Source: Lama guanicoe (Eukaryota). Taken from it: a stretch of 64,000 nucleotides of DNA. The DNA lies in the NCBI GenBank assembly GCA_013239625.1, contig MU053185.1:1-64000 (forward strand). Direction: 5' to 3'. Made by a program: the position numbers and the translations under genes. Position 1 is the stretch's first letter. Each line of letters starts with the position of its first letter. The notes below the pieces were generated by a model. The model was not told the DNA's origin, made no database searches, and saw only the letters and a program-made list of their open reading frames with translations. Below are positions 35,301 through 48,224 of this stretch, in pieces.

Positions 35301-36907
35301 TGAATTATACTTATGTAAGCAGACTTGGAACAGTTATCTTTTCTATCTGATCCATCCAGAGACTGGAAACTCTTAGGTCCCCAGTGGCTCTATCAGATAA
35401 ATAAGGAAAATCACCTCCTAACAGGTATAGGAGTCTCAAGGTATTTTGAGGAACTTCAAAAGAAAAGAATTCACCTAAATATGTAAAGCAAAATCTGTGA
35501 CAAGCCCTTAACAAGGCTTACCTGGCCTTAGGAGACCTTACTAAAAATTCATCTTGAGTTCTGGCACAGACAGTTTAAAAGAGCCTATATGATCAAATAA
35601 TCAGACTTAATTTGCAGATAAATTAATCTTGATTTGACTATATTTGATAAAAATGAGGGTAACGTTAGAGAGAAAAAGATTGTATTTCAGTGGATATTAA
35701 ATTCTAGTTTTGTTAATTGAGGTCTATTTACTAAGACTCACCAGATCATTCCTTGCTGTTATGTTATATTGTTACTGTGTTTAATTGAATTATTAAAAGG
35801 ACACTCTAGGTTTGTTTCTGAAGCTCAGTAATCTATCCTTGGATGAAGATCTGATGCCCCATGACCTGCAAACAGGGGATTATACATACTGTAACAGACA
35901 TGATTTAAAAACTATCTTCAGCCTGAATGGAAGGACCCTTTATCAGGTACTCTTAACTAGACATGCACAGCAAAAGCTGAAGGAAACTGACTTTTGGATT
36001 AATTTCCAGTCAGAAAGAGCCCCTGCACTGGACTGATCTATAGAGCACTGCTCACCTTAAAACAATGCTCAGATGGAGAAGCTACCAGCCCAGGATGAGA
36101 AGATGACATCTGAGGTAGACAGCTGACCCAAGACACTGGACCAGATCTGTATACCAATTACTTTGATTATTGCTCATACCATTGCTTATGAACTAATCCA
36201 ACTGTTAGGTTTATGGTCAATTACCTATATCTAGCACTTCTGTGTTACCTTGGTGGGTTTCCCTACTCCAAGGCTCTAACTAGATAGCCCTGAGAAAATT
36301 TATTCTAAAAAAATTATAGTTCTATTTAGGCCACTATTGACATTACAAGGTGGGAACCCTCACCTGGCCAATTAATAATACCTGCTCTGAGCCTAGCCAT
36401 AAATATGAATTTTCTTATAAGATCACTCAAGCTCAACCAAGGCAACAAGCAAAATTTCAGCCAAAGAATATAACCTCCCTCAATTATGGAAAGGACTTAT
36501 ATGGTTAACACCAGGGTATAGACATTTAGGTTTAAAGGCTCTCTTATGTTGGAAAAAATTAAATTATACTAAAGATAACCAACCTAACAACACTAGGAAA
36601 TTTGGCTGGGAGTCTTACGAACAATGCCTGTATAACGTCTTCCTTAAAGATAAGGACTGATACAAAGCAGACTGTCAGATGACCCAGGGATACACTGAGC
36701 TGCACCTAATGAAAAATTTTGACTAAAATTCTTACTTATGACCTTACTAATACTTCTAACTATATTATTTGTATTTTGCCTGTTTTACAAAATTGTTGTT
36801 TCTTGCATTACCAAATGTATGACTGAGCCTCTGATAAAATAATGATTAGGGAACTTGAAAGAGTAGACAAGATACATACTTCTGTATGAGACCCATGATT
36901 GTAATAG
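32400..36907 (+). mobile_element. Non-autonomous MER4-group-like ERV internal mosaic with IN-tail and env remnants; resumes at 42901-43150
   Basis: W.GP.QVLL-like IN tail near 35930; LQNHMALNI-like env remnant near 33650; paralogous blocks at 32830-33130 and 35810-36430. Confidence 0.6.
34302..34958 (+). mobile_element. Solo LTR, family of provirus C
   Basis: TGTTAG...CAACA; TSD taac at 34298-34301 and 34959-34962; high identity to LTRs at 48225, 55309 and 58033. Confidence 0.95.
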
Positions 36908-37321
36908 TGTGAAGGAAAAGCCGGGCTGGTCTAACAAGATAACTCACAAATCTAAGTATGGGGATACTGATCTGAGTTCTGCTAGACTAACTCATAAATC
37001 TAAGTTAGTGTTGGTTTGCTGTTCATGTTTTTTTGCTAGCCAGCTGGATTTTCAAAGAGACATATCTGGCTTTGGAATGTTGGTTTGCTGCCTCCCTGCC
37101 TCCACTTTTGTGATAATGACTTTGCTAAAGCTGTTCCATGCCTATTGGCCGAATACCCCAAGCTTGTACTTTACCCTATAAAACCTCATGCGCACGTCTT
37201 GGAGGTGCTCAGAGCTTTGGAGCAGAAGCCCCTCTGAGCCCGCCGGCGTAATACATCTGAGTACTCCAACCCTCCGAGTGGTGCTTGTTTCTTGACTGGC
37301 CTGTCGTTTCCGTAACATTTC

Positions 37322-37339
37322 TGGAGGCCCCAGCGAGAT
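37322..37339 (+). promoter_or_regulatory. PBS tRNA-Thr(UGU)
   Basis: tggaggccccagcgagat, complementary to the recalled 3' 18 nt of tRNA-Thr(UGU). Confidence 0.85.
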
Positions 37340-38743
37340 ACAACCAGGCCGGCCCCTTGAGCCGCTGGACTGGTGGCTCCGGCCAACCAGGGGACAGGAT
37401 TCCGGCAGCGAACGGGGTGGCACCGCCCGACAGTATTCCGGGTTCTCCTTCGTGATGGCAACTCGGCCCCCCGGGTGGCTGGGCTACAACCAGAGCCAGA
37501 CTCCACGGAGGGACAGACAGACTCACCAGGTGGCTGTCCGGACAAGGTAGGAACCCCCGGGAGGAATCAGGTCCTGTCCCATTGGACAGAAGAGGAGGCT
37601 GATCCCCTCCTACAGGCTCTCCGTCTGATGGTATTTCAGACGGGGAAATCAGGTCAGGAATCAGGTCCCGTCCCAGTGGACAGAAGAGGAGGCGGATCCC
37701 CTCCTACAGGAAACAGGATATTGGTATTGGTGGGAGGACTGTTGTTAACCTCTGTGTATGTGTGTGTGTGTGTGTGAGTGAATGAGCGGCCTGTGAAGCA
37801 TGCGATCAGGCTCGAGTTTGTAGCTCCACGGCGTTCTGCTACGGAGTTCGAGTGAGTCCCAACCTGCGGTTCCGTGGTGACCTCATACGGCTCAGGGCGG
37901 TATCAGTCCCTCAGGGTCCCGATCGGAGTCAGCGGCTTATACTGACCCGCCAAAGCTAAGAGGCACCTTCGTCCCCGCGAGGGGAGCGGCCAGGCGGACG
38001 CAACGAAAACCCTCCCTTGTCTTGTCTGCGACACCGGCACAGGGTGGCTACACTGGGAGGGAAAAGGACATAGCCAATGAGTCAACGCCCCTGTGCCCTT
38101 GGAGGCTAGGATGCTATTTCTTTGAGAAAGTCTCCTACCTGACTCTGTCACAGAACACCCGAGACTTATTGTTCCCCTACTGAACTGACCCAAGTAGTGC
38201 CCCTTTTGCCTAGCCCCAGACACCCAGGACGTAAGTTTAGAAGACGAATTCCTTCAGGACCGGGCTTGCCCAGCCCTGGAGGTCCCTTTTCTAGTCCATT
38301 TGTTTTGCCATCTGCCGTCAGTCCCAGCAAAAGAGCAGTCTCTCTGGGAACTCCGGTGTTTTGAGGAGTGAAGAAGGAAAAGATATAAAGGCTACCTTCC
38401 CAAACATCTAGAGCAACAGATATGTTATCCTTAAACATCTAAAAAGAATGGGAGGCTCTAAGTCAAAACCCACCACTCTAGACTGCATGATTAAGAATTT
38501 CAAAACGGGGTTCTCAGGACACTATGGAATTCGAATGACCCCTGGCAGGCTCCGCACTTTGTGTGAGCTTGAATGGCCGGCCTTTGGAGTCGGGTGGCCC
38601 TCAGGAGGAACTCTGGACCTAGCAACAGTGCGAGCAGTCTATCAAATAATCACTGGAACCCCAGGCCACCCAGATCAATTCCCTTACATTGACTCCTGGC
38701 TGAATATCGCCCAGACTCTACCCCCATGGATTCGGTTTTGCTC

Positions 38744-39327
38744 NNNNNNNNNNNNNNNNNNNNNNNNNNNNNNNNNNNNNNNNNNNNNNNNNNNNNNNNN
38801 NNNNNNNNNNNNNNNNNNNNNNNNNNNNNNNNNNNNNNNNNNNNNNNNNNNNNNNNNNNNNNNNNNNNNNNNNNNNNNNNNNNNNNNNNNNNNNNNNNNN
38901 NNNNNNNNNNNNNNNNNNNNNNNNNNNNNNNNNNNNNNNNNNNNNNNNNNNNNNNNNNNNNNNNNNNNNNNNNNNNNNNNNNNNNNNNNNNNNNNNNNNN
39001 NNNNNNNNNNNNNNNNNNNNNNNNNNNNNNNNNNNNNNNNNNNNNNNNNNNNNNNNNNNNNNNNNNNNNNNNNNNNNNNNNNNNNNNNNNNNNNNNNNNN
39101 NNNNNNNNNNNNNNNNNNNNNNNNNNNNNNNNNNNNNNNNNNNNNNNNNNNNNNNNNNNNNNNNNNNNNNNNNNNNNNNNNNNNNNNNNNNNNNNNNNNN
39201 NNNNNNNNNNNNNNNNNNNNNNNNNNNNNNNNNNNNNNNNNNNNNNNNNNNNNNNNNNNNNNNNNNNNNNNNNNNNNNNNNNNNNNNNNNNNNNNNNNNN
39301 NNNNNNNNNNNNNNNNNNNNNNNNNNN
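38744..39327. other. Assembly gap (584 N)
   Basis: Run of n. Confidence 1.
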
Positions 39328-39343
39328 TCCTTCCTACTCTGAA

Positions 39344-39810
39344 AAACTGCAGGCATTTCAATCACATTATGGTCTAAACAAAATTAAGAAGAAGAGCTTC
39401 CACAATAATAGCAGATAAAGAGCCACTGGTAAACCTGTCAGGATTTTTGGCCTGCCCTCCAAAGAAAAGGAGTGAAAAGTGTCAGAGTGGGCCATGGAAG
39501 ACGTCAAGGGGAGCCACGCCAAGCAGCGGCGGATGGAACAGCAACCACTGCCACCTGGCAACAGCCGCAGCAGCAGCACCCCCAGCCCCGGCACCGCCTC
39601 CACCTGGGCCATCGCCGCCTCCACCTGGGCCACCGCCACCTCCATGGCAACTGTCGGGGAGCACCGGCCCCTGCCCAGTCCTGAAATGATGCTGGGATAG
39701 TAATAGGGCTCTGTCGCAGAGACATGCGAATATTTGGTCCCTGTCCAGCCCACAATGATTTCCACTTGGTGGTATGTGACGACTGTAATCAGGCTGTCAA
39801 GCCACAGGCT
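39344..39810 (+). pseudogene. ATXN7: Intronless, circularly permuted ATXN7 (ataxin-7) 5' fragment inside gag
   Basis: Encodes KLQAFQSHY, then ~98 nt of non-coding sequence, then SE.A.EDV.GEPR, QQPQQQHP, ASTWA..AMATVGEHRPLPSPEMMLG, GLCRRDMRIFGPCPAHNDFHLVVCDDCNQAVKPQA; these match the recalled ataxin-7 N-terminus. Confidence 0.93.
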
Positions 39811-40689
39811 ATGATTGACCTCTTAGAGTCTATCTTCCATTCTCACCGGCCCACCTGGGAAGATGCCCGCCAGCTGCTTCTGACTCTTTTCAATACAGAG
39901 GAGAGGAGACGCATTCTCACTGAAGCACGAAAATGGCCACAGGGCCTAGCCCCTGGGGACACAATGGATGTTGAGGGGTGGGCCATGACACATGCCCCTG
40001 ACACCAGACCAGATTGGGACTTTAACACCCAAGAAGGAAGAGAAGCACTGTGTGAGTACCGGGAGGCCATCCTACAAGGGCTAAGAGCGGGAGCCAAGAA
40101 GCCAACTAACATGTCTAAAACGACCACGGTGACCCAGAAGCCAGACGAGACCCTCACTGACTTCTATGAGAGACTATGTGAAGCATTCCGAGTCTACACT
40201 CCTTTTGATGCTGAGGCCCAAGAAAACCAGCGGATGGTCAACGCTGCCTTCGTAGCGCAATCATACCCAGATACACGCCGGAAACTCCAAAAACTGGATG
40301 GATTCACAGTGATGAACGCTACACAGCTGCTGGAAGTAGCAAACAAAGTTTTTGTAAACCGAGAACGGGAAGCCCAACGAGAAGCAGACCAGCGAATGAA
40401 GCAGAAAGCCGCATTCCTTGCAGCAGCCCTGGGGAAAACAAGCTTCTGCCAGAATCCTGCACCACCCGGAAGAGGGGACCCCAACCATGGATGCCCCTGG
40501 GCCGAGACCAGTGCGCATACTGCCGGGAGACAGGGCACTGGAAAAACGAGTGCCCAAACAGAAAGGATGGAAAGAGAGCACCCCCAAAAGGCCTACTTAT
40601 CAGCTGGAGCCACCAGCCAGTAATCACATCGGACTGGCTGGGGTCGACTCAGAACAGGAGAGACCACGCTCCCTGCCCCTGGGCCCCGG

Positions 40690-42230
40690 GAAGCCCAAGG
40701 TCAAGATATTTATAGGGGGCCAACCAATGACTTTTATGGTAGACACAGGAGCAAAGTATTCTGTGGTGACCCAACCTGTAGCCCCCCCCCCCCGACCAAG
40801 AAAAAGGCGACTATTATAGGGGCTACTGGGGACTCAACTGCCCGCCATTTCTGCCAGCCACGATCCTGTCGAGTAGGAGGCCATCTAGTGACACATGCCA
40901 TTATTCACTGTAAGGGACACCAAAAAGGAAATGACCCTGTGAGCCAGGGGAACAGGCTGGCTGATCAAAGGCAAGAGGCAGCTGCCTGGGAACACTCAGT
41001 AATTAAAGTTATGGCAGCACCAGAGCTACCCACTGCCCCCAGAATATAGCCACGATGAAAACAAGTGGGCACAGGCCGAACAGGGAAAGAAAGGAAAGGA
41101 TGGATGGTGGATCATGACGGATGGGAGGGTTTTCATCCCAGAACGACTAGCTTATCATCTAGTCCAACAACAACACAAAGCCACACACATGGGAAAAACG
41201 GCTTTGGAGGCCCTCTTAAAGCGATATTTCTTAATTTCTCATCTCCCTACTCTGTGCGCATCAGTCTCCCAACACTGCTTGCTCTGTGCACAAAACAATC
41301 CAAAACAAGGGCTCACTGGGCCAATGGGAATACAACGATGCGGATTGGCTCCCTTCAAAGATTTAGAAGTGGACTTTACTGAACTTGGGCCCAGTAAGGG
41401 ATAAAAGTACCTGCTGGTTTTCGTCTGCACCTTCACAGGGTGGGTAGAAGCCTACCGCACCAGGACAGAGAAAGCAAGAGAGGTAGCAAAGGCTCTCCTC
41501 AGGGATGTTATCCCTCGATTTGGAATGCCTACCTCCGTCAGGTCTGACAATGGACCCACCTTCATGGCAGAAATTGTACAGCAAGTGGCAAAGGCACTGA
41601 GCATCCCCCGGAACCTGCACACAGCATACCAGCCTCAAAGCTCAGGGAAGGTAAAACGAATGAACAGAACTCTAAAACAAATGATAGCTAAAATCAGCCA
41701 AGAAACCCAGCTCCCCTGGGTGGACATTTTACCCCTGGCTCTGTTGTGAATAAGATGCACCCCAAGATTTAATATTGGGTACTCTCCCTTTGAAATCCTC
41801 TATGGGCGACCGCCACCTTTAGTCAAGATGGGAAATCCCACCCCAGAAATAGGAAATTTAGGGCTCCAACAAAAACTGTTGGGACTAGGACAAGTACTAT
41901 GAGAAGTTTGGGGTTGGGTGATAAACCCCCATTTCATTAGGGGTCCAAATGCATCCCCATAAACCAGGTAACCAGGTATGGGTGAAGGACTGGAAAAAGG
42001 AACCTCTGAAACCAACATGGAAGGGACCATATTTAGTGGTATTAACTACCCCTACAGCTGTTAAAGTTGCAGGAATCATCCCTCGGGTCCACCACTCCAG
42101 GGTTAAGAGAGCGACTTCACGTCAGACAGAGGGTCCCTGGAAAATTTAGAGGGTCCCAGGAGACCCGCTCAAGATCAAGATCAAGAGGGACCAGAAAAGG
42201 ATCTACGAGCCCTGCTCTAGCCACACCCGG
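40690..42230 (+). pseudogene. pol: Provirus B pro plus RNase H tail plus integrase; RT deleted near 40897
   Basis: FMVDTGAKYSVV; jump to IIHCKGHQKG; HHCC (HKATHMG...CLLCAQ), EVDFTE, SDNGP, WKGPY motifs. Confidence 0.92.
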
Positions 42231-43150
42231 AAGCTGGCTAGTCAACACACGGCCGAAGCTTGAGGAAAGCTCAACGCAGCTGTTAAATGTATTTCTTTTG
42301 TGCTCCCTTGCCTCTTTCCTTGTTTACTATACTAGTCTGCATATTAGCAGTGGCGCTAGCTAGGGCCACCCCACCTGACTGGAACATAGGCCATAGAATC
42401 CTGATAGCTATTTTTTATCTTGTTATAATTAGTGCCATTGTGAAGGAAAAGCCAGGCTGGTCTAACAAGATAACTCAAGTCTAGGAATGTGAAGGAGAGG
42501 CTGGGCTGGTCTAACAAGATAACTCACAAATCTAAGTATTGGAATACTGATCTGAGTTCTGCTAGACTAACTTGTAAATCTAGGTTAATTAGTGTTGATT
42601 TGCTGCTCATGTTTTTTGCTAGCCAGCTGGGTTTTCAAAGAGACATATCTGGCTTTGGAATGTTGGTTTGCTGCCTCCCCACCTCCACTTTTGTGATGAT
42701 GCTGCTGCTAAAGCTGTTCCATGCCTATTGGCCGAATACCCCAAGCTTGTACTTTACCCTATAAAACCTCACACGCACGTCTTGGAGGTGCTCAGAGCTT
42801 CGGAGCAGAAGCCCCTCTGAGCCCGCCGGCGTAATACATCTGAGTACTCCAACCCTCCAAGTGGTGCTTATTTCTTGGCTGGCCTGTCGTTTCCATTACA
42901 ATAGTGCAAGTCTAGACATGGGAGGAGCAACAAGAGGGAATATTTTCCTGGATCATGATAGATGAGTAAGACAGGAGATCCAGAGAATTTTTGAGTATCA
43001 ATAGGGCCTAATCCCTGTTAACACCTTTGAGTAGCAGGTCAACAAAATCTTCCCGCGATCTAGGAATGAGCCTTCCTAGCACCATGGGACAAAATTGGTC
43101 ATGAAATGTCTCCCAAAATATTGGTTGAATTTAGGACCAAGGGGGAGCAC

Positions 43151-44361: not shown

Positions 44362-47300
44362 ATTGGTTCCTATCAGGGAAATGTATGTGGGGGCTCATCT
44401 CAGGCCCAGCTGAGTGACCCCAGGCATTTCTATTCAATTGCATTGCTACTGATAGGCTGAGAACAGCACAAAACAATTGGCCTAGCTGACAGGACTGCAT
44501 GATGGCCTTTGCAATTAATCAAGGGAACACCCTTTAGCTGTAACTGGCTTGCTCGCTGACTAACCCAGATGGGTGACACCATCTGGGAACAGAACACTGC
44601 TTGCTGGAGGGCGGTCATGCTGCTGCGTGCTTTCCCATATTGCCTCTGTCGTGTGCTGCCTGTGGTACCCACCCCAAAATGTCACTGCTGCCATAATAAT
44701 TCAATGATCTCCCCAGAGCAGTGAGATCAAGGCCATATGGTCTAATGAGGCAATTAGATCACTAATTAAAAAGGCTTTAATTGGCTGTTAATGTACATGA
44801 GGGTCCCACACACCTCCTGCTATGCAAAGTTGGCATGATCCAATGGCTCTGTCATTTCTATGACCATAGTGACCCAAATGATCCCCTGAATTGCCAACCC
44901 TGGATTTGCCCCATTTGACCCTAAGTCCAGATCGTATTCTTTTTACTAATTCCAGGGCAGTGCTACTGCATTTTGGAGACATTCCTGAAACTATCAGGCA
45001 CTGGAGGGCACTGACATGGTTGCTAGACATAGACACTGCCGCCCAGATGCCCCAATACTTCAGACTTGTCGCCTTCTGTCCCCACTGCCCCAGAAAGGTC
45101 TCCCACAAACAAATTTTCCTCAATGGAAAGGGTTTCCCACTCCCTCCCTAATAAACCCCTGATGTAATTTTGCCCCTTATGGTACTGGGAGTTACGGAAA
45201 CTTAGGGTTTTTGGCCAATCTCTGGATAGCGAGTCTCTAAACTCCAGGCCCTGAAACTAACATTCTCCCAGCTATAGCATTCTTCTGCTGTCCAGCCTCT
45301 TGCCACACCCCTCTAGCCCCAAGCCAATCCCCACTATTCCCTCTACCCCTTCCCTAACCTCTAGTACTGGCAGCCTACTTAAGCTCCTACCCTAGGAAAT
45401 CAACAGTTCCCTGTGCTGGGCCCACCTCCCAGAGTCAATCAACCCTATACCACTCTGGTGGTCCATTAGTACAATAAAAAGACACAGTCCTTTTTGGCCC
45501 TACTAGACATGGGGACCCAAGCCACTCATTCCAAGCAATCCTTCTAAATCTCAAAAAAAGATGCCCTTCTACCTACAAGGCATTGCCAGTAAAACAATCA
45601 AAGGTGTACAAATCCACCTGGATATCCCTAACAGGACCATTCACTTCAAATGGCTTCCTTTGGTGGTGGCCACCAGCTTGTTCTTTCATATTATAGGTGT
45701 GGATGCACTGACATGATGCCATGCCCATGGAAAAAGCCCAAGTTCTTGGCCTTCTTGGTGGGACTGACCAAATGGATGTCAGTGACTCTTCCCTCCTGGT
45801 CGAGACAGTAAACACTACCCAATATCGATGTAAACACAGCAGGGAGGGCCTACACCCTGTCATGTAAGATACACTTCAGCCCGGAGTCAGGAAGCCACAA
45901 TCTCCCCTTTCAATAGCCCCATTTGGCCGATATCTAGACCAGCCACCAACGAATGGCACCTCACCATTGACTATCAAGACCTCAGTTCTCAGGTTCCCTA
46001 TTAAGGCTTCAATTCCTAATAATACAGAACTGAGTGAGGACATATAATCGGCCCAAGGAGTGTCCTTTGTTGACCCACTAACCTGTTCTATTCTGTTCCC
46101 ATCTCAGAGGAGTCTCAGGCTCAATTTTCTTTCACTTTTGAAAGGAGTGAATATACATTTATGTGGTTCCCAATGGGATATTTAAACAGCCCTGCAATCA
46201 CACATAATCTCTGCCACCAAAATGTTAATACCTTACACTTGGAAAGGTGTCATTTTGGGCATTATATTGACGACACTATGTTCAGGTGTCCTTCTGAGAA
46301 AACAGGACGAGCAGATTTTGCCCCCCTCACACACCACCTACACCAGTGTGGCTGGGCAATCGCCCCTCACAAGATCCAAGGCCCTGCCTCATCTGTCAAA
46401 TTTCTGGGTGTCTAGTCCCCCAAGGACTGAGAAATTTCCCCAACAATAATTACTCACCATTAAATCACCCACGACACTCAGACAAGCACAACACATATTA
46501 GGCCTTTTCATGTGCGGGAGGCAACACATCACATCTCAATGTTTTTTCGTCCTATGTACACAATCACATACAAGTCGGCCACTTTCCATTGGGGTGAAGC
46601 CCAACAGTGTGCTTTGACAGCTTTCCAGCAGAAAGGCCACAAAACTTTACCTTTAGTCCCCAACTGGCTCCATAGTCCATGTCAAGTCATTGGCCACACC
46701 TGACTAACCCTCCTGGAGTCTCAGGAGCAAACAGGAGACTACCTGGCTTCCCATGGGGTTTGGGATCCCTGGCAGCAGACACATATACTCCCCTTAAACA
46801 CCAGCTTTTGGCATCCTTTTTGGGCTCTTTTAGGAACTGAATCCCTAAGCAGGCCCCACCTGGTACTACTCTAAATACAAGTTCCCATGATGCCCTGTGT
46901 TAGAGATGTCTTTCAAGAGAAAAGCTCAGCACAGCCACCAATGCCTCCTTAGTGACATGGAAATGGTACCTTCAGGAGAGAGCTAAACGTGACGTCAAAG
47001 GCCTTCCAAATTATAGGAGGATGTGGCTTCCCCGATGCTCAGCCCCTTGCCGGACAGCCTCAAGGAACAGCAGCACCCCCTCCCATTCTCCTCCTGTGGC
47101 TCCTTGGGGAGCCCGTGGGGAGCAACTGTCTGGACCTGTAGCTGTTCACCTAGCCCTTAAGGAGGCCATAAAAAGGGCCTTTCACAGATCCCTATTTTCA
47201 CAGACTCCTGGACTGTTGCTAACAGCCTTGCAGTTTGGTCTGGCCAATGGCTCAGGGACAGTTTTCTCATACAAGGCAAGTCCACCTGGGGCTCCTAGAT

Positions 47301-48224
47301 ACAGGAGGAACTAGGAGAATCCCAGTCCCTCTCAGCGGTACTCACAGTTCCACTCCCTCTAACCACCCCACACCAGAAGCCATTTTCAACAATACTGCAG
47401 ACCCTCTCACTCAGCCCTCCACTCTCTGCCAGGTAGATGCCTCCGGGCGCTGACCCTTCTCACCAGCTTTTAAAATGGGCTCACAGCACCTTGGGTCATC
47501 GGATACTCGTGCCTTAATAACTTGGGCTCAAGTGAGGGCCCCCACCCCTCAGCAGCAGCCAAGATTGTGATACACGAACGCACTCTCTGCAACCAAACTA
47601 GACATCGGGGGCTACCCGATAGGGACATACTCCCGGGGGGAGACTGACCATACGCCCACTGGCAGATTGATTTCATCAGCCCATGGCCCCCTTCTGCTGG
47701 GCTTTCCAGATACCCCATCGCATTCATGGATACTTACATGGGACTCCTCTTGGCGAACTCTACCTGGAATTCCTCCTCAAAACACATAATCTCTTTCCTC
47801 ACTAAGTTTATTGGTCCCTTTGGATTGCCATTGTTGACTGTGACCAGGACACCCACTTCACCTCTCAGAAGAATCACCAGTGAGCTCTTCCAACAAAGTG
47901 GCTTTCAAAACTTCTAGCAAGGTTATGCCCCCAGGTGGCTGACCTCATTGAGCATCTTAATGACCTCCTTAAAGAGATATGACTTAAATTGTTTTCAAGC
48001 AAGTGGTTCTTGAAATGGATCGAACTCTCGTCCCAGGTCCTCATCTTCCTTAATCTTCACCCCCTGAGCCTTCATACCCACATACCAATTATTATACACC
48101 CTCCCCACAAATTCCATTTTCAGTCATGTCTGGTAATCCTCATGCTTTTACACTAACACGATGTCCTTTTTATTGTGTCCTCTAACTCCGCTTCCCCCTG
48201 CTGCTATAACTTTTTGCATCATAC
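44362..48224 (+). pseudogene. pol: Class III (ERV-L-like) gag-pro-pol remnant; probably continues at 58688-60420
   Basis: LALLD.GTQ protease; FNSPIWP; FPMGYLNSPAITHNLC; HYIDD; GWAIAPHKIQGPASSVKFLGV; WQIDFI. Confidence 0.85.

Follow-up and report, generated by a model that had tools for sequence, protein, structure and literature searches.

Pseudogenes derived from circular RNAs (circRNAs) have been described, among them 33 high-confidence copies of mouse circRFWD2 that carry few terminal A residues and have flanks rich in long terminal repeats (LTRs), and the way in which circRNAs return to the genome was called "mysterious" (Dong, 2016; PMC4897178). A 2017 review, in its available text, took that work as a hint of LTR-mediated retroposition, a route suggested only from the LTR-enriched flanks. 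Here we describe a 64,000-nt stretch of the Lama guanicoe genome (assembly GCA_013239625.1, contig MU053185.1, positions 1 to 64,000; hereafter the window), in which the gag gene of a gammaretrovirus-like endogenous retrovirus (ERV) is interrupted, at the start of the capsid, by 455 nt of the host gene ATXN7. The inserted sequence represents a single turn of a circle formed by back-splicing, and we consider it likely that a retroviral reverse transcriptase (RT) switched onto a packaged circRNA and back again, guided by an 11-nt match between gag and ATXN7. The locus records the event at the level of its junctions, in a genome that also contains the parent gene and, besides the carrier virus, its uninterrupted form, and it shows how circular RNAs can re-enter DNA.

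As in the pseudogenes reported by Dong (2016; PMC4897178), the exons of the insert are non-colinear and include a back-splice, poly(A) is absent, and many copies derive from one circle. The gene and the host differ from the circRFWD2 case, and, whereas no carrier junction was resolved in that study, here the carrier is the gag gene of an ERV, with both junctions in one 11-nt match. A second related system is the microsimilarity-guided template switching of LTR elements onto linear host mRNAs, with replacement of a part of the element, described in the available text of Tan (2016; PMC5131818). There too, host RNA sits within an LTR element with a short match at both switch points, neither poly(A) nor a target duplication marks the borders, and the chimera is a non-autonomous element that was copied again. 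However, in the same text the mRNAs are linear, the two switch points are different (median match of 6 bp), the interior of the element is partly replaced, and the word "circular" is absent; here the template is circular, both switch points fall in one 11-mer, and nothing of the virus is replaced. Of the features that define that class, microsimilarity and further retroposition are found at our locus and interior replacement is not. The chemistry is the same as in LTR-mediated retroposition; the circular template, the single shared switch point, and the absence of viral loss are new.

In classical retroviral transduction, host genes are captured by read-through and non-homologous recombination. 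The ERV described here resembles such viruses in carrying spliced host sequence in a defective, helper-dependent genome, but no upstream integration or read-through is needed, the captured part is a closed lap of 5' exons rather than the 3' part of a gene, and no viral gene was swapped out. Processed pseudogenes made by L1 are likewise reverse-transcribed spliced host RNAs flanked by a short direct repeat; in contrast to them, our insert has no A-tail, its exons are in circular order, its direct repeat is also sequence of the parent gene, and its copies multiply within an LTR element that makes 4-bp duplications. Neither a 3' poly(A) nor a duplication of target sequence only, both expected of L1 products, is found here, in agreement with the view of the first-pass annotation of this stretch that L1-mediated insertion fits poorly. 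As to the RNA itself, human ATXN7 yields several circRNAs of 336–1106 nt, all with exon 3, the CAG exon, according to the available text of PMC13313202. The circle inferred below shares with them the exon containing the start codon and the CAG tract, and its native lap of 596 nt lies within their size range; those, however, are RNAs of living human cells, whereas here we have a DNA fossil in another species (PMC13313202, available text). In open-access papers and preprints, we found no junction-resolved case of circRNA capture by a retrovirus or ERV.

The source of the insert was established by searching the window's own genome (2.05 Gb). The 43-residue translation of positions 39685–39813 matches residues 125–161 of human Ataxin-7 (7ktr_N, E = 2.4e-15) and ends in K-P-Q-A; a protein search with the same translation for relatives of ATXN7 gave no match. 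A search for the SCA7 domain identified three loci in the genome, and that on contig C4216 is ATXN7, with 89 residues nearly identical to residues 366–454 of the human protein (E = 5.9e-46). Three parts of the insert, which we call exons A, B, and C, each match C4216 once in short DNA searches, and a fourth exon, B', was located there by a pattern search.

All four exons are bordered by AG and GT at the native locus, where they follow each other in the order A, B, B', C, with exon A 52 kb upstream of exon C. Exon A (98 nt, 5' untranslated region; C4216:12008400–12008497) has the borders ag/GTCTGAAC...GAAAAG/gtaact. Exon B, 324 nt from 12,021,639, contains the start codon and the CAG/Pro-rich tract and is bordered as tgtag/GAGCGG...GGACG/gtgagt, its acceptor reading tgtag/GAGCGGAAAGAATG. 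Exon B' (69 nt; 12022187–12022255) runs from ctag/GGACGG to GCGAAG/gtgagt, its end being ...GAAGTCATGGGGCTCTGTCGCGAAG/gtgagt. Exon C, 105 nt at 12,060,301, has the borders ttgcag/ACATGCC...GTCAAACCGCAGGCATTTCAATCGCATTATG/gtaagt; it contains ACATGCC...GTCAAACCGCAGGC and ends in ...ATTTCAATCGCATTATG/gtaagt. Together, the native lap comprises 98 + 324 + 69 + 105 = 596 nt, and the four exons presumably correspond to human ATXN7 exons 2–5.

Within the window, where all features named here lie on the forward strand, the exons appear in circular order. The insert starts with the last 17 nt of exon C (ATTTCAATCACATTATG, 39355–39371), which end at the native splice donor, and the first base of the complete 98-nt exon A (39372–39469) follows immediately. 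Exon B, joined to exon A at its native acceptor, occupies 39470–39702 and is truncated at an AGTC match; next come the last 19 nt of exon B' (39703–39721), spliced to the first 88 nt of exon C (39722–39809), which were identified by both the native exon and the Ataxin-7 protein match. Exons A and B, and likewise B' and C, are connected by ordinary splices. The join at 39371/39372 is a back-splice, because the donor of exon C (..CATTATG/gt) meets the acceptor of exon A (ag/GTCTGAAC) exactly. This bears out the proposal of the first-pass annotation that a circle served as the template. The insert contains no intron, no sequence from beyond the four exons, and no A-run, so that it is a circRNA-derived pseudogene in the established sense: a reversed exon junction at real splice sites, with only the exons of the circle and with neither introns nor poly(A).

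Non-colinear junctions can also arise in other ways (Dong, 2016; PMC4897178), and a linear ATXN7 transcript with repeated or shuffled exons, produced by tandem duplication, trans-splicing, or an RT jump between two mRNAs, might be considered as the source. We regard this as very improbable, given that exons A, B, and C each match the native locus once, the C-to-A join is exact at both donor and acceptor, and nothing from beyond the four exons is present; besides, human ATXN7 does make circRNAs with the CAG exon, as stated in the available text of PMC13313202. One segment of the lap is missing: 94 nt are absent between exons B and B', bounded by two copies of AGTC, with the junction GGGACAGTC/ATGGGG. 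Alternative splicing was rejected as an explanation of this gap, since no placement of the AGTC junction yields a GT–AG intron; the gap is hence a microhomology deletion rather than a splice.

The boundaries of the insert read as the first-pass annotation had quoted them. On the left, gaa (39341–39343) is followed by the 11-mer AAACTGCAGGC (39344–39354) and by atttc, ending at 39359; on the right, gtc precedes the 11-mer AAGCCACAGGC (39799–39809), which is followed by tatg (39796–39813 in all). The left copy encodes K-L-Q-A and is a CpG-decayed form of AAACCGCAGGC. In native ATXN7, the point at which the circle opens reads GTC-AAACCGCAGGC-ATTTC. The 11-mer or its decayed form, encoding K-P-Q-A, is also found, uninterrupted, between CTCTGAA and TATGATT in all 30 insert-free gag loci examined as individual copies; ten of these had matched only the right flank in the genome search, and 20 more were fetched. 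The earlier claim that both parents encode K-P-Q-A at this place therefore stands, the insert-free gag copies having kept the site throughout. A search with one insert-free locus showed that at least 34 loci run straight across the site at 81–100% identity.

In the first ten insert-free loci, the sequence is ...CTACTCTGAA-AAGCC(G/A)CAGGC-TATGATTGAC, that is, PSYSE-KPQA-MIDL, with the exception of single-base changes in one of them (L026). Insert-free copies thus have the structure ...CTACTCTGAA-11mer-TATGATTGAC and insert-bearing ones ...CTACTCTGAA-11mer-[lap]-11mer-TATGATTGAC; the two differ by the lap and one 11-mer only, and not a single gag base was lost or gained, confirming what had been surmised from the window. 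The insert-free capsid aligns to the murine leukemia virus (MLV) capsid (6hwx_A, E = 1.3e-55), with SEKPQAMIDLIES opposite MLV SEDPGKLTALIES. From this alignment, the site of the 11-mer is ordinary gag, about 48 residues into the capsid, although MLV SEDPGKL and the SEKPQAMIDL of the present family share only the residues E, P, and L.

The two 11-mers of the window differ at three positions, CCG to CTG, CCG to CCA (both CpG decay), and A/G at position 3. These are later changes, and the two copies were almost certainly identical at capture. Hence, as a correction to the first-pass annotation, neither of them can be assigned to one parent. Among the 30 insert-free 11-mers, positions 1–3 are AAG in 24 and AAA, as in ATXN7, in six older loci (81–90% identity to the query). 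In the 20 insert-bearing copies analyzed below, position 3 is A in 17 left and 13 right 11-mers, and G in the remaining 3 and 7, respectively. A tree of the inserts rooted on the host exons has copies with the AAA form at both 11-mers as the first to branch, and three of these early copies (L010, L015, and L019) carry AAACCGCAGGC, or a form within one base of it, on both sides. From these forms, the match between gag and ATXN7 at capture was probably 11 of 11, and at least 10 of 11 with an exact 8-mer.

Such a repeat could be taken for a plain target-site duplication, in which both flanks would be decayed copies of pure gag sequence. This candidate was rejected: the repeated 11-mer is also present in native ATXN7, between GTC and ATTTC, exactly where the lap opens, and, were the repeat a target duplication, the inserted lap would lack exactly those 11 nt. 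There is no A-run at either end of the insert in the window, and the right junction, ...CAGGCTGTC-11mer-TATGATT, is the same, and free of poly(A), in 20 of 20 insert-bearing copies, as had been noted for the window itself.

These observations bear on an alternative in which the L1 protein ORF2p copied the circRNA where an integrated provirus, still active, had been nicked; the 11-nt match would have primed synthesis and served again to join the far end, and helpers would then have mobilized the chimera. The top strand at the site is A-rich (CTCTGAAAAACC), with a loose likeness to an L1 endonuclease target, and the final structure would be identical. The mechanism was also left open for the mouse pseudogenes (Dong, 2016; PMC4897178). 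However, the insert lacks an A-tail and any target duplication beyond the shared 11-mer, and L1 would have had to strike, in 2 Gb of genome, one of the few proviruses that were active; copying by RT, by contrast, requires the viral context. Furthermore, the family has other microhomology jumps that were themselves propagated. We therefore consider action of L1 unlikely, if the least improbable of the alternatives.

The microsimilarity at both fusion points, the 11-mer with 10–11 of 11 bases identical, is beyond chance. If a random viral site were joined to a random site of the circle, the junction would lie within a shared exact run of at least 8 nt with P ~1e-4, and of at least 11 nt with P = 4–7e-6. 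Homology of this kind might also have acted between DNA molecules: the circRNA would have been converted into double-stranded cDNA, circular or with several laps, which recombined with a provirus at the 11-mer by a single crossover or by microhomology end-joining. As a matter of geometry alone, a single crossover between a circle and a linear molecule yields exactly one lap between two copies of the homology. On the other hand, 11 bp is far below what mammalian homologous recombination usually needs, a double-stranded circular cDNA requires an extra unexplained step, and the same improbable strike on an active provirus has to be postulated; recombination of DNA thus seems to us quite unlikely, more so than the involvement of L1.

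The chimera is present at several loci, as the first-pass annotation had anticipated. The exon-C part of the insert has 29 matches in the genome, namely, the window, the native gene, and 27 others, and hence 28 matches in ERVs. In every one of the 20 insert-bearing copies examined, the window and 19 others, both junctions with gag are the same, and so are the back-splice, the A–B and B'–C splices, and the AGTC deletion. A single capture follows from these common junctions. Two independent captures, which might have accounted for the two clusters of flanks described below, were rejected on the same grounds, as all junctions and the deletion are shared. Five insert-bearing proviruses including that of the window start with the same TGTGAAGG, and their upstream flanks are unrelated (no match in 10 of 10 pairs); they are therefore separate integrations, and the hybrid was retrotransposed. 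In total, the hybrid spread to at least 28 places. The window's group (L001–L009, with L005 and L010 on the stem) is a derived clade in the insert tree (99/97). The capture is older than the provirus copy of the window; distances in the family are inflated by CpG-rich sequence and RT errors.

The chimeric genome was defective. The gag frame stops at TAA 39416–39418, in exon A, 21 codons after KLQA, where native exon A has TGA. With this stop, the chimera could make neither capsid nor Pol and needed helpers. A genome that was gag-defective from birth has nevertheless reached about as many copies as are listed for its helpers.

Relationships of the carriers were assessed in a tree of gag flanks comprising 19 insert-bearing and 30 insert-free rows, with the window omitted as its left flank consists of Ns. 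Insert-free rows are basal in this tree, 12 insert-bearing rows form one clade (99/98), and the remaining 7 are found inside a young insert-free clade. Given the single origin, this pattern means that insert-bearing copies swapped flanks with their insert-free relatives or, with lower probability, that the insert was precisely lost. Seven of the 20 right 11-mers have G at position 3, the form of the young helpers, which fits such a swap.

Precise loss could be pushed further: all insert-free copies might be secondary, produced by deletion between the two 11-mers, in which case KPQA of gag would itself derive from ATXN7 and the original entry would not have been guided by homology. Retroviruses readily delete between direct repeats, and the young insert-free clade adjoins one group of insert-bearing copies (group A) on the flank tree. 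However, the basal rows are insert-free and already have the 11-mer. Moreover, the chimera had the gag stop from the start, so that an intact helper lineage had to exist throughout, and the alignment to the MLV capsid shows the site to be ordinary gag, though this is not proof. A secondary origin of all insert-free copies is accordingly most implausible, on a par with the linear-transcript source.

We thus favor copy-choice by a retroviral RT, which would have proceeded as follows. An ancestor of the ERV family would have packaged the host circRNA back-spliced from the four ATXN7 exons (596 nt). During minus-strand synthesis, RT would have completed its copy of AAACCGCAGGC in gag (the K-P-Q-A codons, close to the N-terminus of the capsid), at which point the growing strand could have paired with the identical 11-mer of exon C on the same-sense circle. 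Synthesis would then make one lap of the circle, skipping 94 nt at the 4-nt AGTC match, and return to the gag RNA at the same 11-mer, giving a gag gene that keeps all its bases and contains one lap of the circle with the 11-mer at either end. Degradation by RNase H of the template already copied may be the reason that synthesis ended after a single turn. The chimera would subsequently be copied by insert-free helper relatives and exchange flanks with them.

Several observations are in line with this scheme. ATXN7 is in the same sense as gag, as copy-choice requires; there is no A-tail; no gag base was lost or gained; homology is present at both switches; and further microhomology jumps are seen in the family. 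Of the template switch put forward in the first-pass annotation, the match of about 11 nt and the circle are shown by the sequences, whereas we infer the retroviral RT as the enzyme, the co-packaging of the circle in the particle, and the direction and order of the two switches, the first two because the context is viral, the host RNA has the same sense as gag, and both switches lie in homology. Each of the alternatives discussed above needs an extra coincidence or an extra step.

Some facts nevertheless weigh against copy-choice on a packaged circRNA as we have set it out. A 6-kb proviral stretch and the circle share 35–50 exact 8-mers and one or two 11-mers; as short matches between virus and circle are that plentiful, homology explains how the switch could occur and not why it occurred here. 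The ancestrally perfect 11-bp direct repeat resembles a target duplication, and only the argument from the 11 missing nucleotides excludes this. On the flank tree, insert-bearing copies do not form one clade: the insert label needs three changes, of which at least two are forced by well-supported branches, which obliges us to invoke recombination with insert-free relatives, or precise loss of the insert, as well. The left flank of the window's own copy is unreadable. The sequence identifies neither the enzyme nor the compartment. Lastly, packaging of circRNAs by a gammaretrovirus was not found in open-access papers and preprints, the sole match being the abstract of a 2026 preprint on HIV-1.

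According to that abstract, whether circRNAs enter retroviral particles had been unknown; with copy-choice as the route, the ATXN7 insert would document uptake of a host circRNA by a retrovirus long before any retrovirus was reported to package circRNAs. We suggest more tentatively, as an idea that may well turn out not to hold, that copy-choice on packaged circRNAs is a general route to multi-copy families of circRNA-derived pseudogenes in mammals, including mouse circRFWD2. Its signature would be a single lap, as RNase H destroys the circle behind the enzyme, with one microhomology for entry and exit and no viral loss. A signature of one lap at the same microhomology can be searched for in other genomes, and the two template switches can be tested with purified enzyme.

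The insert is located in a provirus of about 6 kb (36908–42900), flanked directly by a 4-bp target-site duplication ATAG (36904–36907 and 42901–42904). The 5' LTR (36908–37317) and the 3' LTR (42488–42900), both of the TG...CA type, share 92.5% identity; their alignment of 414 positions has 26 mismatches and 2 gaps. From the divergence of 26 of ~412 aligned bases and a generic mammalian rate, the window's copy would be on the order of 15 million years old. The gag start (MGGSKSK...) and the matrix domain are located at 38448–38743, in an open reading frame (Pfam Gag_MA, E = 1.7e-16) cut off by a 584-nt run of Ns (38744–39327) inside gag that masks the gene to the left of the junction. Only 16 gag bases (39328–39343, ..PSYSE) are readable between this run and the left 11-mer, and they are identical to the insert-free flank CTCCTTCCTACTCTGAA; therefore the left gag flank was read in the 19 other copies. 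Counterparts of the N run are ~373 nt long in L002 and ~414–428 nt in L021, so that its length of 584 is not sized to the hidden sequence; the Ns stand either for a gap in the assembly or for sequence that was withheld. To the right of the insert, the capsid resumes with MIDLLESIFHSHRPTW..., without loss of a base, and extends over 39810–40623 (Pfam Gag_p30, E = 1.4e-47; it also aligns to MLV capsid 6hwx_A), followed by remnants of protease and integrase at 40694–41749 (Pfam RVP, zf-H2C2, and rve). The paired LTRs, the 4-bp duplication, the MLV-type matrix and p30 capsid, the protease, and the integrase make this a gammaretrovirus-like (class I) ERV. In the window's copy, the RT region is deleted at ~40897 and env is absent, and insert-free loci continue into other sequence past 40897. 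Whereas no gag base is missing at the insert, these copies have internal deletions at other places, which vary from copy to copy.

The leader between the 5' LTR and gag contains a 55-nt direct repeat (37562–37616 and 37656–37710, 95% alike), followed by (TG)n near 37757–37777. Compared with most other copies, ~142 nt are missing between the leader and the gag start, at 38326, in the window's provirus. Two insert-free short defective proviruses, L026 and L028 (contigs C5752 and C5185), have a deletion that joins the equivalents of window positions 40918 and 42018.

A subfamily with a short insert was read at three loci (L066, L067, and L068 on C7387, C5730, and C8828, respectively). In this subfamily, the left 11-mer (AAGCCGC) is joined to exon B at ..CAGCCGC/CCAGCA, with the match AGCCGC, and the exon C tail, the back-splice junction, exon A, and ~100 nt of exon B are absent. 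Two more loci, C55231:31441866 and C6946:2636711, probably belong to the same subfamily. Being present at several loci, the short-insert form was propagated, and its junction is another propagated microhomology jump in the family.

Two insert-free loci on separate contigs, L021 and L022 (C5404:936989–937409 and C55230:24605267–24605687), show 100% identity across 421 nt, and the gag frame of L021 is open for at least 250 codons. This may reflect recent activity of the insert-free lineage, or else a recent duplication of the two loci.

Some copies of the family are clustered. Four insert-bearing copies (L013, L017, L018, and L020) are found within 41 kb at C1236:2939131–2980303, L017 being equal to L018, and two copies at C55231:6665–92809, where L011 is about equal to L012. 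Both clusters contain copies in both orientations and look like local segmental duplications rather than fresh integrations. On each of three further contigs (C9062, C2573, and C5183), an insert-bearing and an insert-free copy are located 8–52 kb apart, which could be due to chance or to local reinsertion.

Contigs from public sequencing runs under three organism codes align to the stretch. A 206-nt contig of run X4 covers the fast-decaying CAG/Pro region without any difference from the window, and run X12 shows 3 differences from the window in 223 nt. Public-run contigs with a loose end at 39799 read the gag left flank and thus represent the insert-free form. One contig from an RNA-labeled run extends 41 letters into the N run; contigs from RNA-labeled libraries are not evidence of transcription here, nor are holes in the coverage evidence of absence. 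Finally, open frames with an RT-like appearance at ~46074–47917 of the forward strand (..GHYIDD.. in the frame 46074–46415) point to a second retroelement, of another kind, whose remains would lie downstream of the provirus.

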